The notes: generated from the letters alone by a model not told the origin. Positions 1 to 7,697 are shown, counted from the first letter of the stretch. The stretch: 64,000 bases of DNA from an uncultured delta proteobacterium (GCA_963775425.1 CAVZJB010000007.1:256001-320000); one strand, 5' to 3'. Numbers and translations are program-made.

Positions 1-3000
1 GGCCTCGTAGGTGCCCGGGACCTCGTAGAGGTGCTCGGCCGACAGGCCCGCCGCCGTGGCGCCGAGGTCGACGCCCTCGTCGTCACCGAAGTAGATGAAC
101 GCGGCCACCGCGTAGTCGGCGCCGTTTTCGGGCATGCGCGACGCGGTGCCGTCGAACTGCACGAGCAGCGGCGCGGCGCCCTCGATGGGCGTGGCGGTGA
201 GCGCCGGCAGGAGCACCTTCTCGTCGTCGGGCGGGTCCACGAACGTGATGTCGAGCGCCCGCTCGTCGACGCCCCACGGGTTCACCACGTTCACCGTCGT
301 GTGGCACACGCCGGCGTTTGCCTGGTGGATGATGGCGACGCCGTTTGGCGTCACGAACAAGCAGCTCCCCCGCGGCGACTGGAACTGCATGGGCTGATCG
401 CCGCTGACGGGAACGAGGTAGGCGTTTGGGTCGAGGGCGCCGATCTCGTCGATGCGAAAGACGTAGCCGCCCGGCGGCTCCGCGATCGCGAGCGACGGCG
501 GCGCGCCCGCGCCGACGTCGACGGTGAACCGCTGCGACGCGCTGCCGCTCCGGTCGACGACGAGCAGCTCCACGTCCACCGGCCCCGCCGCCGTGGGCAT
601 CCACAAGAGTCGACCGTCGACGTTGTCGACGACCATCCCCGGCGGCGCGTCGCCGAGCGCCCACGCGAAGGGCGGCTCGCCGTCCGCCGCCGGCAGCGGG
701 CTCGCGTACACGGTCCCCACCCGCGCCGTCGTCACCGGGGTCGACGTGATGGTCGGCGCCGCGTGCGCCCCCCCTGCCGACAGCGCCGCGGCCACGGCGG
801 CGACGACGGTGCCCCGGCGGCGGACGCGCCGCCGCACCACTGTGGTCCTGCGACGGCGGCGGATCAGCGCGAGGCCGGCGAGGACGAGCGCGATCGACGG
901 CGCCGTCGACGACGTCCGCGTCGACGCGCAGCCGCCGTCGACGGCGGCGGCGGTCACGTGCACGTCGAACTCCTGGAGGTCCGCGCCCGCGCCGTTTTCG
1001 GCGACGAGCACGACGTGCTGATCGCCGACCTGGTCCGCCGACGGCGTCCACGTCAGCTTGCCGGTGTCGAAGTCGACCGCGAGCCCCTTCGGCGCGCCGA
1101 TCTTCTTTCCGTCGAGGTCCTTGCCGACGCGCCAGCCGATGGGCCGGCCGCCCTGGGCGCTCGCGCGATCGTCGGCGTCGTAGTGCCAGGCCTGCCCCGC
1201 CACGGCGGCGAGGGCCGGCGCGGACACGACGCGCGGCGCGCGCACGCCGTCGGCGCGCACCGCGATGGTCAGCACGTCGCGGCCGACGAGGCCGTCGTTG
1301 TCGGTGGCGGACAAGAGCACCGGGAAGTAGCCCGGCGTCGGGAACACCGCGTCCACCGACGCGCCCGTGCGCTGCGTGCCGTCGGGCAGCGACCACTTCA
1401 CGTCGACCACCACGCCGTCCTCGTCGCCGACGTCGGCGGTGAGCCGGACGTTCATCGGCTCGTCGCCTTCGGCGGGCGTGGCCGCGATGTGCGCCTGCGG
1501 CGGTGACAGGTCGCCGTCGCGCACGCGGACGTCGACGTCGTCGGTGCCGGTGAGTCCGTCGTCGTCGAACGCGGTCACGCGCACGTGGTAGTTGCCGGGG
1601 CGGACGTACGTGTGCGTGGGCGCGGTCTCGGACGCGAAGCTGCCGTCGCCGTAGCTCCACTGGATACCGGCGATGTGGCCGTCGGCGTCGGCGCAGTCGC
1701 AGGAGAGGTGAACCGTGAGCTGGTCGTGTCCCTCGAGCACGTCGGCGTTGATGCGCGCCGTGGGCGGCTGCCGGGCTCCGTCGAGCACCGAGATGGTGAC
1801 CTTGTCGCTGGAAAAGACCCCGTACGGGTCCCACGCCTCCACCGTGGCGGTGTAGCTGCCCGGGATGACGTAGCGGTAGCTCGCCGTGGCGCTCGCGGCG
1901 TCGCCGACGGGCGCGAGGTTGACGATGGAGCTGCCGTCGCCCGGGTTCCAGTAGTAGAGCCACAGCGGCGAGCCGGCGCTGCCGCGGCTCGGCGAAGCGT
2001 CGAACCTGACATCGAGCGGCGCGGGGCCGGTGGTGGGCGTGGCGGTGGCGGCGACCACCGTGAGGTCGTCGCCGAGGTCCACGACGTCGACGCTGAACGT
2101 GTACGTGTCGATGGTGATGCCGAGGCTCGTGACGAGGTCGAGCGTCACCGGGTACGTCCCCGCGGCCGGCGGCGTCCACAGCACGACGCGTTGGTTGCCG
2201 GCGAGGAGGAACCCGGGCGGCAGAGGCTCGCGCGGCACCACCATCAGGACGTCGCCGGGCAGCTCGTTTTCGATGTCGACGGCGTTGTCCTGATCGTACA
2301 TGTACGAGCGCCCGACGGCGGCGAACGGGTTGGCCGTGTGCGCGAGGTGCGGCAGCGTGTCCGGCGGCCGCGAGAGCACGAAGTCCTGCTCATCGCTGCC
2401 GAACGCGTTTTCGGCTTTGATGCGCACGTCGACGGGATCGGTCAGCACGGGGATCCACGTGATGGCGCCGGTGGCCACGTCGACCACCATGCCCGACGGC
2501 CCCTCCACCAAAGACCAGCGGATCTCGCCGGAGCCGACGGCGGTGGGGGCCCCGCCGGCGCCGTCATAGGTATAGGCGGCACCGACGTTGAAGATCGTCC
2601 TGGGCGTGGAGGTGATGACCGGCGGCGCGTAGACGTCGACCGCGAAGTCCTGCAGGTCCTCTCCGTCGGCGTTGTCGACGGCGATCTCGACGGGCACCGG
2701 GCCCTCGACGTCGGGGAGCCAGCTCACCAAGCCGCTCACCGGGTCCACCGTCATCCCGGGCGGCCCGTCGACGAGCCGGAAGCTCGTGCCCGTGCCCGTG
2801 GCGTTTACGCAGCCGTCGTCGTCATCGTACGCGTAGGGGGCGCCCACCACCGCGACGGTGCGCGCCACCGACGCCACCCGCGGCGCGCCCAGGCCCGCGC
2901 GCACCGTGACGGTCACCGTGTCGGGCGCGCTGGTGAAGGCGCCGTCGCTCACGGTGAGCGCGAAGGAGACAGCGACGTCGCTGAGCACGACGGGCGCGGT

Positions 3001-4806
3001 GAACGTGGGCTGCGCGGCGGAGGCATCGTCGAGGACCACGGGCGGGCCGGCGGTCTGCGCCCAAGAAAACAGGAGGGGCGTGCCGTCGGGGTCGCTGGAG
3101 CCGGAGCCATCGAGCGCGACGGTGCTGCCGGGCGCGGCGTCGGCGTCGGTGCCGGCGCTCGCGGTGGGCGGGGCATTGGCGGCGTCGGTGACGATGACGT
3201 CGACGGTGTCCGTGTCGGTGAGCGCGCCGTCGTCGACGGTGAGCGTGAAGGTGAGCGTGACGCCCGCGGGCGGCGCGACGAAGCGCGGCGCCGGCGACGA
3301 CGGATCATCGAGCGTGACGGGCGGGCCGGCGATCTGCGTCCAGGTGAAGGCGAGCGCGGTGCCGTCCGGGTCGGCGCTGGCGCTGCCGTCGAGGGAGGCC
3401 ACGGTGTTTTCGACGGCGACGAAGTCCGCGCCGGCGTCGGCGACGGGGGCGTCGTTGAGCGCGTCGATGACGGTGACGTGGACGACGGCCGTGTCGGTGT
3501 TGATGCCGTCGCTCACGAGGAGAGTGAACGTGAGCACGGTGTCGGCGGTGACGGTGGGCGCGGTGAACTGCGGCGTGGCCGACGACGGATTGTCGAGCGT
3601 GACCGCCGGGCCCGCCGTCTGCGTCCACGTGAACGACAGCGCCGTGCCGTCGGGATCGGACGACGCGCTGCCGTCGAGGCTGACGACGCTCGTCTCGTCG
3701 ACGCTCTGATCGGGGCCCGCGTCGGCGACGGGCGGGCCGCCTGCCTGGAGGTCGAGCGTCCAGGTCTCGTCGGAGTACACCGACGAGGTGCCGCCGATCA
3801 CCCGGCCACCGAACATCACCACCTTGCCGAGCAACGGCGAGTACGCCGTGCCCGGATCGTCGATGGTGCCGCGGTCGAGGTCCACGAGCTGCTGCTGCGT
3901 CCACGCCTGTGTCTGCGGGTCGTAGGTGAAGGCGCCGCCGAGGAGCGTGTCGACGTCCTGGCCGCCGTAGACGAGCATCTTGCCGTCGGCGTCGTCGAAG
4001 GCCGCGGCGCAGAAGCCGCGCGCTTCGGGAGGGTTGCTCGCGTTCACCAAGGTCCACGCGAGCGTGTCGACGTCGAGCTCCCACGTCTGGTTGTCCATCA
4101 CCGCGGCGGTGCCGACGTAGCCAGTCTGTCCGCCGAAGACGATGAGCTTGTGGCGGGCGGCGTCGTAGGCGCTGCAGGTGGCGGCGCGCGCGGCGGGCGG
4201 CGTGCCGGTGGTGGTGACCTGCGTCCACACCGCCGTGCCGGCGGCGGCGTCGACGCTCAGGCGCCACACGTCGTTGAAGAAGCCGCCGGTGACGTTTCCG
4301 CCGAAGCCCTGCGGCTCGATGTTCCAGCCGCCGAAGAGGATGAAGTCGCCGCGGTGCGGGACGTACTTGAAGACGCCGAAGCCGCGAGGAGAAGGCGCGG
4401 TGCCGCCGGTGTCGAGCGACGTCCACGCCGACGTCGTCGGGTTGAACGCGTAGAGGTCGTTGAGGTGCTCGAAGCGGATGCCGAGGTTGTGGAAGCCGCC
4501 GAAGAGGACGCCGCGATCCGCAGCTTCGTCCCACTCGAACACGTGCTGATCGCGCGGCGACGGCGTGTTCGTCGACGTCACTTGCGTCCATGTGAGGGCG
4601 GCGGTGTCGAAGCGCCAGAGATCGCCGAGCCAGTTGCCGCCGAAGCCGGCGAAGCACCACATCTGCTCGCGATCGGCGAGCGGCTCGAGCGCGCCGCCGC
4701 ACGAGCGACGCGGCGACGGCTTCGAGCTCGGGGTCAATTGATCGAAGTCGACCTGCGCGAGCGCAGGGCCGGAGAACGCGAGCGCGAAGAGCCACGCGAA
4801 GCGCAT
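1..4806 (-). CDS. Large secreted surface protein (3' partial): Kelch beta-propeller, PKD/Ig-like repeats, internal MYXO-CTERM-like anchor, then a second signal peptide and further Ig/PKD domains
   Basis: Translated by hand from ATG at 4806: MRFAWLFALAFSGPALA|QVDF signal peptide, Kelch motifs (FAGFGGNWLGDLWRFD, VLFGGF), ADAGPDQ...LDGSASSDPDG PKD-type repeats. No ORF in this frame appears in the track, consistent with an open frame running off the window edge. Confidence 0.9.
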   Translation of the reverse strand, partial: MRFAWLFALAFSGPALAQVDFDQLTPSSKPSPRRSCGGALEPLADREQMWCFAGFGGNWLGDLWRFDTAALTWTQVTSTNTPSPRDQHVFEWDEAADRGVLFGGFHNLGIRFEHLNDLYAFNPTTSAWTSLDTGGTAPSPRGFGVFKYVPHRGDFILFGGWNIEPQGFGGNVTGGFFNDVWRLSVDAAAGTAVWTQVTTTGTPPAARAATCSAYDAARHKLIVFGGQTGYVGTAAVMDNQTWELDVDTLAWTLVNASNPPEARGFCAAAFDDADGKMLVYGGQDVDTLLGGAFTYDPQTQAWTQQQLVDLDRGTIDDPGTAYSPLLGKVVMFGGRVIGGTSSVYSDETWTLDLQAGGPPVADAGPDQSVDETSVVSLDGSASSDPDGTALSFTWTQTAGPAVTLDNPSSATPQFTAPTVTADTVLTFTLLVSDGINTDTAVVHVTVIDALNDAPVADAGADFVAVENTVASLDGSASADPDGTALAFTWTQIAGPPVTLDDPSSPAPRFVAPPAGVTLTFTLTVDDGALTDTDTVDVIVTDAANAPPTASAGTDADAAPGSTVALDGSGSSDPDGTPLLFSWAQTAGPPVVLDDASAAQPTFTAPVVLSDVAVSFALTVSDGAFTSAPDTVTVTVRAGLGAPRVASVARTVAVVGAPYAYDDDDGCVNATGTGTSFRLVDGPPGMTVDPVSGLVSWLPDVEGPVPVEIAVDNADGEDLQDFAVDVYAPPVITSTPRTIFNVGAAYTYDGAGGAPTAVGSGEIRWSLVEGPSGMVVDVATGAITWIPVLTDPVDVRIKAENAFGSDEQDFVLSRPPDTLPHLAHTANPFAAVGRSYMYDQDNAVDIENELPGDVLMVVPREPLPPGFLLAGNQRVVLWTPPAAGTYPVTLDLVTSLGITIDTYTFSVDVVDLGDDLTVVAATATPTTGPAPLDVRFDASPSRGSAGSPLWLYYWNPGDGSSIVNLAPVGDAASATASYRYVIPGSYTATVEAWDPYGVFSSDKVTISVLDGARQPPTARINADVLEGHDQLTVHLSCDCADADGHIAGIQWSYGDGSFASETAPTHTYVRPGNYHVRVTAFDDDGLTGTDDVDVRVRDGDLSPPQAHIAATPAEGDEPMNVRLTADVGDEDGVVVDVKWSLPDGTQRTGASVDAVFPTPGYFPVLLSATDNDGLVGRDVLTIAVRADGVRAPRVVSAPALAAVAGQAWHYDADDRASAQGGRPIGWRVGKDLDGKKIGAPKGLAVDFDTGKLTWTPSADQVGDQHVVLVAENGAGADLQEFDVHVTAAAVDGGCASTRTSSTAPSIALVLAGLALIRRRRRTTVVRRRVRRRGTVVAAVAAALSAGGAHAAPTITSTPVTTARVGTVYASPLPAADGEPPFAWALGDAPPGMVVDNVDGRLLWMPTAAGPVDVELLVVDRSGSASQRFTVDVGAGAPPSLAIAEPPGGYVFRIDEIGALDPNAYLVPVSGDQPMQFQSPRGSCLFVTPNGVAIIHQANAGVCHTTVNVVNPWGVDERALDITFVDPPDDEKVLLPALTATPIEGAAPLLVQFDGTASRMPENGADYAVAAFIYFGDDEGVDLGATAAGLSAEHLYEVPGTYEA

Positions 4807-4848: not shown

Positions 4849-6498
4849 TCACTCGAGGCGGAACACGAGCTTGCTCGTCTCGTTCACACGCACATCGATG
4901 ACTTTGTGGTCGCTCTTGTGGCTCGGCGGGTTGATGACGTCGACGGTGTGCTCTCCGATGGTCAGCGCGTGTCCTCGCAGCGGAGAGCGCAAGCCGGCTT
5001 TGCCGTCGATGGTGATGTCGCACCACGGCAGACACGCGACCTCAAGAGAGCCCATCGCCTCCTTGCCCTTGCGGCTCACACGATCTCCGTGCGTCGCGTG
5101 CGACGGCGCCGTCGTCGCCGCGGGCGCGGTCGTCGCCGCAGACGTCGCCGCGGGCGCGGGCGGCGCCGTCGTCGCGGGCGGCGCCGTCGTCGCGGGCGGC
5201 GCCGTCGTCGCGGGCGGCGCCGTCGTCGCGGGCGGCGCCGTCGTCGCGGGCGGCGCCGTCGTCGCGGGCGGCGCCGTCGTCGCGGGCGGCGCCGTCGTCG
5301 CGGGCGGCGCCGGGGCCACCATCGTCGACGCGGCGGCGTCGGGCTCGTCCACCGGCGCGCGCGCCCACAGGCCCACCGCCGCGGCGACGACGAGGACGCC
5401 GGCACCGGCGGCCCAGGGCCAGGCCGGACGGGCGCCCTCGGCGGCGGGCGCGACGACGACGGTGGCGGTGTCGGGCACCGTCGGGGTCGGCTTCGTCGGC
5501 GTCACCCGGCGCGTGGGCGCCTCGGTGTCCGCCTCGAGCACCGAGCGCGCCGGCTCCGCGCGCGCCTCCGCCGCGATCGACGCGAGCTCCTTGCGCGCGG
5601 CTTCGACGTCGACGGGGAACGCGGCGAGCAGCGTGTCGGCGAACGCAGCGCAGTCGGGGAACCGCCCCGCCGGGTCGCGCGAGACGGCGCGCAGGCACGC
5701 CGCCTTGATGTCGGGCAGGGCGGCGGCGTCGTCGAGCTGCTGGCCGATGTCGTCCATGCGCCCGTCGAGCACCGCCTTGATGACGTCGATCTCGCTCTGC
5801 CCGCCGTACACGCGCTTGCCGGTGAGCATCTCCACCACCACCAGGCCGGCGGCGTATTGATCCGTGCGTGCGTCGAGGATCTTGGCCTCGACCTGCTCCG
5901 GCGCCATGTACGTGAGCTTCCCTTTGAGCACGCCGGTCTCGGTCTTGTGCAGCCGATCCGCTGCGTGGGCCACACCGAAGTCGACCAGCTTCACGTCGCC
6001 GTGCACCGACACCAACACGTTGTGCGGGCTCACGTCGCGATGGACGATCGACAGCGGGCTCCCGTCGTCGGCCTTGGCCTTGTGCGCGTGGTCGAGCGCA
6101 CGCAACAGGCCCATGCCCGCGAACAGCGCCGCCCCCTGCGACAACCGCCGCTCGTGCCGCGCGAGGAAGCCGAGGATCTTCGACAGCGCGATCCCTTCGA
6201 CGAGCTCCATCACGATGAAGTACGCGCCGTCGACGCAGCCGCACTGGATCACCTGCGCGATGTTCGGGTGCGACAGGCGCGCGGCGATGCGCGCTTCGTC
6301 GAGCAACATCTCCACGAAGCGCGCGTCGCTCGTGTGCTCCGGCAGGATGCGCTTGATGGCCACCTCGCGCTTGAAGCCGCCGAGGCCGCGGATCTCGGCG
6401 CGGTGGATCTCCGCCATGCCGCCGGCGGCGATCTTCTCGATGAGGAAGTATTCGCCGAACGGCGTTCCCCGCTCGGGCGCGCCCTTGCTCGTGCTCAT
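4849..6498 (-). CDS. Membrane Ser/Thr protein kinase with low-complexity linker and PEGA-like C-terminal domain
   Basis: GGMAEI, VAIKRI, VHRDVSPHN, VDFGVA and YMAPEQ motifs; TM segment (WAAGAGVLVVAAAVGLW); C-terminal PWCDITIDG. Confidence 0.93.
   Translation of the reverse strand: MSTSKGAPERGTPFGEYFLIEKIAAGGMAEIHRAEIRGLGGFKREVAIKRILPEHTSDARFVEMLLDEARIAARLSHPNIAQVIQCGCVDGAYFIVMELVEGIALSKILGFLARHERRLSQGAALFAGMGLLRALDHAHKAKADDGSPLSIVHRDVSPHNVLVSVHGDVKLVDFGVAHAADRLHKTETGVLKGKLTYMAPEQVEAKILDARTDQYAAGLVVVEMLTGKRVYGGQSEIDVIKAVLDGRMDDIGQQLDDAAALPDIKAACLRAVSRDPAGRFPDCAAFADTLLAAFPVDVEAARKELASIAAEARAEPARSVLEADTEAPTRRVTPTKPTPTVPDTATVVVAPAAEGARPAWPWAAGAGVLVVAAAVGLWARAPVDEPDAAASTMVAPAPPATTAPPATTAPPATTAPPATTAPPATTAPPATTAPPATTAPPATTAPPAPAATSAATTAPAATTAPSHATHGDRVSRKGKEAMGSLEVACLPWCDITIDGKAGLRSPLRGHALTIGEHTVDVINPPSHKSDHKVIDVRVNETSKLVFRLE
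5155..5311. repeat. Perfect 18-bp coding tandem repeat, about 8.7 copies (TTAPPA)
   Basis: Unit cgcgggcggcgccgtcgt repeated in phase within the kinase linker. Confidence 0.95.
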
Positions 6499-6548
6499 GC
6501 TTTGGGGAAGGTAGCGCGCGGGGTCGACCGTTAGTAGCGTCGCACCGC

Positions 6549-7697
6549 ATGGAACACGCGTCGTGGCGCGAGGTGAGCGCGAAGGCCCTGCAGCACAACG
6601 TGCGCACGCTGCGGGCGCTCGCCGGTGACGCGCGGCTCGGCGTCGTCGTGAAGGCCGACGCCTACGGCCACGGCCTCGTCCACGTGGCGCCCGCGCTGGT
6701 GGCCGCGGGCGTCGATTGGTTGGTGGTCAACTTCGCCCACGAGGCGCAAGCGGTCCGCGCCCTGCCCCGCTGCGCCGACGTCCCTGTGTACGTGTGCGGC
6801 ACCGTCTTTCCCCACGAGGCCGCCGCCGTCGTCGACGCGCGTGCGCGCACGGTGATCTACGACGGCGAGGTCGCGCAGGCGCTCGACGCCGCGTCCCGCG
6901 CCGCCGGCGTCGTCACCCCCGTTCACGTCAAGATCGAGACGGGCACCCACCGCCAGGGCCTCGAGCTCCCCGCCGCGCTCGGCCTCGCCCGCTTCGCGCG
7001 CTCGTTGCCCGGCCTCGTCGTCGAGGGCATCACCACGCACTTCGCCGACATCGAGGACTCCACCGACCACCGCTTCGCCGACGCGCAGTGGCGCGCGCTG
7101 CAGGAGGCGCGCGCGGCGTTCGCCGCCGAGACGGAGGCGCCGCTCCTCGTGCACGCGGCCAACTCCGCCGCCACCATCCTCGAGAAGAAGACCCACGCCG
7201 ACCTCGTCCGCGCGGGCATCGCGGCCTACGGGCTGTGGCCATCGAAGGAGACGCTGGCCGCCTGGCGCGAGCGGCACACGGGCGAGGCGCCGGCGCTCTC
7301 CGCGGTGCTGTCGTGGCGCGCGCGCCTCGCCCAGGTGAAGGACGTCCCCGCCGGCGCCTACGTCGGCTACGGGCGCACCTACCGGACCACGCGCGCCTCG
7401 CGCATCGGCATCCTCCCGATCGGCTACCACGAGGGGTACGACCGCCGCCTCTCCAACAGCGCGCACGCCCTCGTCGCCGGCATGCGCGCCCCCGTGCGCG
7501 GCCGCGTGTGCATGAACATGACCATGATCGACGTCACCGACGTTCCCTCCGCCAAGGCCGGCGACGTCGCCACGCTCCTGGGCGCCGACGGCGACGAGCG
7601 CGTCACCGCCGAGCAGCTCGCGTCGTGGATGGGGAGCATCCACTACGAGGTCGTCAGCCGCATCCACCCGGGCCAGCCCGCGCTGCTCACCGCCTGA
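6549..7697 (+). CDS. alr: Alanine racemase
   Basis: VVKADAYGHG PLP-lysine motif, VHVKIETG, VGYG, GRVCMN. Confidence 0.96.
   Translation: MEHASWREVSAKALQHNVRTLRALAGDARLGVVVKADAYGHGLVHVAPALVAAGVDWLVVNFAHEAQAVRALPRCADVPVYVCGTVFPHEAAAVVDARARTVIYDGEVAQALDAASRAAGVVTPVHVKIETGTHRQGLELPAALGLARFARSLPGLVVEGITTHFADIEDSTDHRFADAQWRALQEARAAFAAETEAPLLVHAANSAATILEKKTHADLVRAGIAAYGLWPSKETLAAWRERHTGEAPALSAVLSWRARLAQVKDVPAGAYVGYGRTYRTTRASRIGILPIGYHEGYDRRLSNSAHALVAGMRAPVRGRVCMNMTMIDVTDVPSAKAGDVATLLGADGDERVTAEQLASWMGSIHYEVVSRIHPGQPALLTA

Follow-up and report, generated by a model that had tools for sequence, protein, structure and literature searches.

Signal peptidase I acts on substrates that consist of a basic n-region, a hydrophobic core of approximately 7-15 residues and small residues at positions -3 and -1, with no proline at +1. 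In viral polyproteins, for example the flavivirus structural region, stop-transfer sequences alternate with internal signal sequences and the cuts are made by the host signal peptidase; the likeness to the arrangement proposed below is that a precursor passes to and fro across the membrane and is separated into individual proteins by signal peptidase acting on the far side, whereas the viral case concerns the eukaryotic endoplasmic reticulum, involves no lipid-anchoring sorting tag and shares no homology with the present locus. A sorting signal placed away from the C terminus is reportedly known from archaea, where Abdul Halim et al. (2017, J Bacteriol) are said to have described a substrate of Haloferax volcanii ArtA with a tripartite sorting structure that is not C-terminal; going by the title of that study and the sentence that cites it, this resembles the present case in that an internal signal of the C-terminal type is still processed, and it is said to differ in being a Tat substrate of the archaeal PGF-CTERM/archaeosortase system.

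In the MYXO-CTERM system, the tag is cleaved by MrtX following a proposed lipidation of its cysteine, and the type II secretion system moves the product to the cell surface (Guo, Haft and Wall, mBio 2025; PMC11980579). Internal MYXO-CTERM tags are also published in that article, whose passages on the subject call them rare and describe MXAN_5598 of Myxococcus xanthus, an ORF with a tag in its middle that is likely to be a fusion of two genes, specifying a tagged adhesin and a beta-barrel/OmpA part; processing is proposed to occur at the internal tag, leaving the N-terminal part anchored to the surface (PMC11980579). The same source presents TraA of M. xanthus as a surface receptor bearing a MYXO-CTERM tag and TraB as the OmpA protein that partners it, the two being encoded by overlapping ORFs (PMC11980579). 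The word 'internal' does not occur in a Haft preprint of 2023. Considering that internal MYXO-CTERM tags are already published, the hoped-for novelty of such a tag is absent, and the surmise of an earlier note on the present DNA, that internal tags may already be known in myxobacteria, is borne out by MXAN_5598.

The locus analysed here has the layout of MXAN_5598, as described in the passages on that protein, in that a tag within a single ORF is followed in frame by a second part. It differs in the nature of this second part, which is an untagged outer-membrane beta-barrel/OmpA domain in MXAN_5598 and a paralogue of the first part with a tag-like tail in the present case; those passages make no mention of a second signal peptide or of a hairpin. 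TraA/TraB share with the present locus that a tagged surface protein is directly followed by a partner bearing a signal peptide, and such fusions can, by analogy, arise from a two-gene state of this kind; however, in the account given of them TraA and TraB are two separate ORFs for a receptor and its anchor, whereas here two adhesin-like paralogues are joined. A fused counterpart of the TraA/TraB layout is present elsewhere in the genome under study, at C16:417316-426069, where a Calx-beta adhesin, a tag and a TraB/OmpA-like part (NF033763, 1.1e-63) follow one another across a junction.

Two related modules joined in one reading frame

The window, this being the whole stretch of 64,000 nucleotides that was analysed, corresponds to G000:C7:256001-320000 of an 8.26-Mb draft genome in 18 contigs (94.55% complete, 2.79% contamination). 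On its minus strand, an ORF initiating with the ATG at 4806 remains open through the window start (1..4806, 1602 codons), and translation confirmed the open frame that the earlier note had read from this position, including the residues quoted from 936 to 757 and the absence of a stop. In the whole genome, the same ORF comprises 1955 codons and ends with a stop at C7:254939-254941, 1061 bases past the window start. The gene located upstream (window 4852-6726, minus strand) specifies a Ser/Thr protein kinase in which PPATTA is repeated nine times in tandem and which also has a transmembrane segment; it shares its frame with the fusion ORF, with one stop and 14 codons in between. When the junction was compared as DNA, similarity appeared at C7:261134-261329, C11:678171-679364 and elsewhere; these matches were set aside, the one that was inspected lying in the Pro/Ala/Thr repeat of this upstream kinase. 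The order to which the 8.3-Mb genome belongs also includes a family (f6) with 21 genomes of 0.3-3.4 Mb, an unusual spread of sizes within one order.

The first part of the ORF, here termed module A (aa 1-1320), opens with a signal-peptide-like start (4756..4806, minus strand), in which MRFAWLFALAFSGPALA is followed by QVD; the MRFAWLFALAFSGPALA|Q layout is that expected of an N-terminal signal peptide as judged by eye, and the AAAQVD boundary is conserved in the orthologues described below. This is followed by a Kelch beta-propeller (aa 49-354; 3745..4662, minus strand; PF24681 1.9e-43, PF24981 1.8e-24) and by a region of three K319L-like PKD domains, He_PIG Ig-like domains, PKD and a last He_PIG (aa 363-1287; 946..3720, minus strand; PF22352, PF05345, PF18911 and PF00801), within which the limits between domains are approximate. 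Module A is closed by a MYXO-CTERM tag. The second part, module B, extends over aa 1350-1955 (606 residues), of which aa 1350-1602 fall in the window (1..759, minus strand) as established by family scan and genome extension, and consists of a He_PIG domain, a region without a family match, PKD repeats, a further He_PIG and a terminal tail. The earlier note had left to extension of the contig whether further tags follow, and beyond the window the ORF indeed ends in a second tail of cysteine, hydrophobic run and RRRRR, reading SCAS...ALALALAALSLRRRRR with an Asp just before the hydrophobic run and with the stop directly after, which is the normal position for such a tail; it remains below the TIGR03901 cut-off in both the protein scan and the genome search.

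Module B aligns collinearly with aa 726-1287 of module A (35% identity, E 3e-71), in agreement with the earlier observation that the downstream part restarts the upstream architecture, and its first He_PIG begins exactly at the predicted cut described below, with profile positions 1-95 of 96 matched on aa 1350-1431. Since each module combines a signal-peptide-like start, domains and a tag or tag-like tail, both are laid out like the complete precursor of a surface protein with a tag. By these sequence relationships, modules A and B are paralogous predicted surface-protein modules, fused in frame.

The junction between them starts with the internal tag (aa 1291-1320; 847..936, minus strand), in which a GGC motif, an uncharged hydrophobic helix and an Arg cluster succeed one another (GGC ... 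SIALVLAGLALI RRRRR), all of these being conserved in both orthologues. This tag matched TIGR03901 over profile positions 2-33 of 34, exceeding the cut-off of 20 bits only just in the single-protein scan (21.5 bits) and reaching 29.5 bits in the whole-genome search; it is thus borne out as a MYXO-CTERM tag, and the 635 codons that separate it from the next in-frame stop constitute an atypical, internal configuration for MYXO-CTERM. The tag is followed by the loop TTVVRRRVRRRG (aa 1321-1332; 811..846, minus strand), predicted to be cytoplasmic, and the loop region contains 11 Arg in 17 residues. An AGGA at 849-846 overlaps the last Arg codon of the tag and is followed, after a 5-nt spacer, by a GTG at 840-838, forming part of GTG GTG at 840-835; the spacing given by the earlier note is therefore found in the sequence, as are the rare codons that it placed at the junction, with AGG accounting for 3/87 Arg codons and ACA for 3/187 Thr codons of the ORF.

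The loop leads into the hydrophobic core and c-region of an internal signal peptide, TVVAAVAAALSAGGAHA (aa 1333-1349; 760..810, minus strand; delineated from the sequence and the orthologues). Judged by eye and by the conservation of its parts, this signal peptide covers aa 1323-1349 and reads RRRVRRR / TVVAAVAAALSAGG / A-H-A | A-P, with A1349|A1350 as the site at which signal peptidase I is predicted to act (window 760|759; AHA|AP at 762-757) and APTITSTP downstream. The basic n-region, hydrophobic core and A-H-A that had been recognized after the tag hence correspond to a canonical signal-peptide layout by eye, in which the -3/-1 rule is kept in 3/3 orthologues.

Orthologues and the origin of the open junction

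A search of 5.8 billion proteins retrieved two full-length orthologues from other assemblies (1979 and 1985 aa), which are 57% and 56% identical to the present protein from end to end and in which a single ORF holds the parts in the same order with the same junction. The earlier note had considered that homologues might always be split into two genes, and this is not what was found, as 2/2 close homologues are fused. In all three orthologues the GC/Cys motif, the Arg cluster or loop, and the small residues at -3 and -1 followed by AP are kept, the latter as A-x-A, V-x-A and T-x-A (V-H-A|AP and T-L-A|AP in the two relatives), and the sequences of the hydrophobic cores differ. The linker is approximately 8, 12 (here) and approximately 19 residues in length and variable in sequence, and is in frame and free of stops in each case. 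In both orthologues, a Met is aligned with the GTG, within an otherwise unconserved linker.

None of the 23 shorter-protein matches represented a stand-alone module B, these being generic PKD matches and one close fragment of 105 aa; no orthologue of the junction was found in the 40 nearest species genomes, and 9/41 genomes matched the query, on the Ig and tag parts only. When the DNA of the two orthologues was sought, the scan of species genomes returned nothing beyond one Kelch match, 28% identical, from a Bacteroidetes MAG, and the scan of JGI metagenome contigs returned no match. Among the matches in the nearest genomes, an unrelated protein, by eye similar to N-acetylmuramoyl-L-alanine amidase, was seen to be fused in the same way (G009:C556, loci L017/L027): a Glu-Gly repeat and a tag are followed by an in-frame linker of low GC content with GGAG and ATG, and then by a signal peptide, the mature start of which, APTID, resembles the start of module B.

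The orthologues bear on whether an assembly or sequencing artefact may mask two ordinary genes with a stop or frameshift between them, a possibility for which the draft state of the genome, with its 18 contigs and the completeness and contamination given above, leaves room. An assembly error is unlikely considering that two orthologues from other assemblies keep the single ORF and the same open junction. Moreover, five more tags of the same genome that exceed the cut-off share the layout, and the tag, the signal peptide and the flanking domains are all in one frame; the other two frames are without a nearby stop across 850-760, so that a single-base indel would not restore a normal end of the tag. 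An artefact is accordingly regarded as extremely improbable.

The retained start codon bears on a second alternative, according to which the locus would be the relic of an operon: module B would mainly be self-initiated at the GTG at 840, and reading through from module A would be a tolerated by-product of a lost stop, made in no fixed proportion. The AGGA, the 5-nt spacer and the GTG are all present, Met occupies the GTG column in both orthologues although the linker is otherwise unconserved, and the signal peptide of module B has an n-region of its own, RRRVRRR. However, both the frame and its openness are kept in the three orthologues despite indels in the linker, and initiation at that Met would, in one of the orthologues, yield a signal peptide without a charged n-region. 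The absence of a stop furthermore entails that every ribosome finishing module A enters module B, and the fused precursor is consequently made in any case, which counts against this alternative. Further evidence on both sides comes from the junctions of related genomes.

Junctions in this genome, its family and the phylum

Searching the genome with TIGR03901 yielded 43 matches over the cut-off, whose distance to the next in-frame stop is bimodal, being 0-31 codons in 37/43 and 183-635 codons in 6/43. All six internal tags run directly into a signal-peptide-like stretch, and this junction layout is more than chance. Approximately one tag in seven is thus internal in this genome, as opposed to the description of internal tags as rare in the corresponding passages of PMC11980579. 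A seventh junction of the genome, at C4:660718, has a tag below the cut-off; the seven include the Calx-beta adhesin fusion mentioned above and the LPMO-like tandem described next, and two of them carry lipoboxes. The genome furthermore contains a myxosortase core gene (NF040914, C16:1167191-1167502, 102.1 bits against a cut-off of 100) alongside its many tagged proteins.

At C16:22985-24439 (L025), an ORF of 484 codons contains two tandem SCE4755-type LPMO-like units, each with a signal-peptide-like start and a MYXO-CTERM tag; two TIGR03901 stretches are found in it, and the units are joined as RRRRRR-TSALPALVV with no start codon in between, which looks like an in-frame tandem duplication of nearly the whole gene. 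Two neighbours on the same strand, C4:379604-382216 and C4:383223-387029 (L021 and L022), lie approximately 1 kb apart and each contain an internal tag with a signal peptide after it; one of these signal peptides ends in AQA|A and the other has the lipobox LTAC. A profile match at C17:254437 was not counted as a junction, its tag being followed by 87 residues that bear no resemblance to a signal peptide. AGG serves as the last Arg codon in 4/6 internal versus 2/37 terminal tags of this genome and in 0/27 junctions from other genomes; therefore, the rare AGG codon was rejected as a general feature of junctions. In two cases from this genome, a CTG lies 6-8 nt downstream of GGAGG or AGGA, and this pattern of AGG and CTG may be what is left of a ribosome-binding site and of a start that has mutated.

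A profile of the seven junctions was then applied to the 11 genomes of the family, consisting of the present genome and ten sisters. Among rows without a stop in which the full model was covered, 18/18 from the ten sister genomes were confirmed as junctions on inspection, as were 7/8 of the same kind from the present genome, and junctions were present in every sister genome searched. A profile of 22 family junctions was in turn applied to a sample of 151 genomes of the phylum, giving at least approximately 46 full-length, stop-free rows from at least approximately 32 genomes outside the family among the 150 matches listed; where loci corresponding to such rows were examined, 18/18 hold a junction (13 by pattern, 5 by eye). 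Together with the 18/18 rows of the sister genomes, this answers the question, raised at the outset, of whether such junctions occur in other Myxococcota, and establishes a recurrent type. Five of these 18 loci, all from one genus (g62), consist of a tag, RRFRR, a loop, a hydrophobic core, AHA|Q and a beta-barrel/OmpA part; they fit the architecture published for MXAN_5598, the match being one to that architecture as described, and show in addition the hairpin with a second signal peptide. In a further genome, two full-length junction matches at G114:C1:3156157-3156318 and 3162184-3162357, approximately 6 kb apart, both fall in an open frame of 3905 codons, which may represent one ORF with two internal junctions and three modules.

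The family junctions also speak to the operon-relic alternative. Between the Arg cluster and the hydrophobic core, the 22 junctions have loops of 0-13 residues, with no residue at all in 8/22 and 0-4 residues in 16/22; by the same rule the loop of the present junction comprises 11 residues and is longer than most, and together with the Arg-rich n-region, the AGGA and the GTG aligned with Met in both orthologues this gives it the look of a separate start that is still used. Versions with two genes separated by a stop exist in relatives, an example being G010:C914, where a tag is followed by 8 residues and a stop and, two codons later and in frame, by a Met and a lipoprotein signal peptide; a single substitution would, judging from this sequence, fuse such a pair. 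On the other hand, 12/22 family junctions lack any ATG, GTG or TTG in the stretch from the Arg cluster to the hydrophobic core, so that their downstream part can be made only by translating through. Taken with the evidence from the orthologues, predominant self-initiation of module B seems unlikely.

With respect to cleavage, nearly all 22 family junctions end, by eye, in a small-x-small motif or a lipobox, the latter being clear in three and near in one; a junction that ends in a lipobox is sensible only if the peptide is cut. This has a bearing on the possibility that the product of the present ORF is a permanent hairpin, that is, one inner-membrane protein with two periplasmic arms in which neither signal is cut. 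The experimental basis of the sorting machinery, as given in PMC11980579, is compatible with such a possibility to the extent that C-terminal tags only were tested, in Myxococcus, yet the same article states that sorting tags function in mid-protein, for which Navarre and Schneewind 1994 and Abdul Halim et al. 2017 are cited. A plain hairpin would, moreover, need neither the conserved Cys motif nor the conserved small residues at -3 and -1. At approximately 12-14 residues the hydrophobic cores are short, module B has a terminal tail of the same kind of its own, and cutting is also suggested by those junctions that carry a lipobox. We therefore hold an uncut hairpin to be quite improbable.

Proposed processing and its meaning

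The reading that we prefer, and that we consider probable, is that the conserved in-frame fusion of modules A and B gives rise to a precursor which threads out, in and out again across the membrane, and which myxosortase and signal peptidase cut to give two lipid-anchored surface proteins. Of the polyprotein reading as originally put forward, the single ORF, the genuine internal tag and the signal-peptide layout have stood; for the topology and both cuts, we infer the following order of events from the features of the junction. The N-terminal signal peptide would start Sec export of module A, which would proceed until the hydrophobic helix of the tag acts as a stop-transfer sequence, and the Arg-rich loop, with its 11 Arg, would remain in the cytoplasm. 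The second hydrophobic core would then restart Sec export with its N end in and its C end out, resulting in the export of module B. Myxosortase would cut at the Cys motif, after lipidation, and signal peptidase I would cut after AHA. The expected products are two lipid-anchored proteins, which the type II secretion system would bring to the surface, and a hairpin peptide of approximately 55 residues, which would be discarded. This model of a precursor cut in two fits the finding that, although the hydrophobic cores differ, all three orthologues have kept the small -3/-1 residues along with the Arg loop and the Cys motif. Since the position of the GTG is taken by a start codon throughout, with Met in the two relatives, module B may in addition be initiated internally at this retained GTG.

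While the idea of processing at an internal tag is in print for one Myxococcus protein, what the present locus adds is that both fused modules are paralogues with a tag or tag-like tail, that the fusion is conserved at 56-57% identity, and that internal tags reach a frequency of 6/43. With 6/43 internal tags in this genome and junctions in every sister genome, annotation pipelines and tag censuses that consider the C terminus only will overlook, or join wrongly, an appreciable fraction of surface proteins. As a compact substrate, the junction would also allow myxosortase and signal peptidase to be tested together on one chain. If both cuts occur, the locus would specify a bacterial polyprotein made at the membrane, in which one translation leads to two surface proteins by means of general export and sorting enzymes only. 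At a more general level, we put at about even the chance that the pair of tag and signal peptide is a general and selected linker of the Myxococcota, by which one precursor would give two or more lipid-anchored or outer-membrane proteins upon being cut on both sides of a disposable hairpin, and to which, at the present locus, the start codon would add a second, adjustable route to module B.
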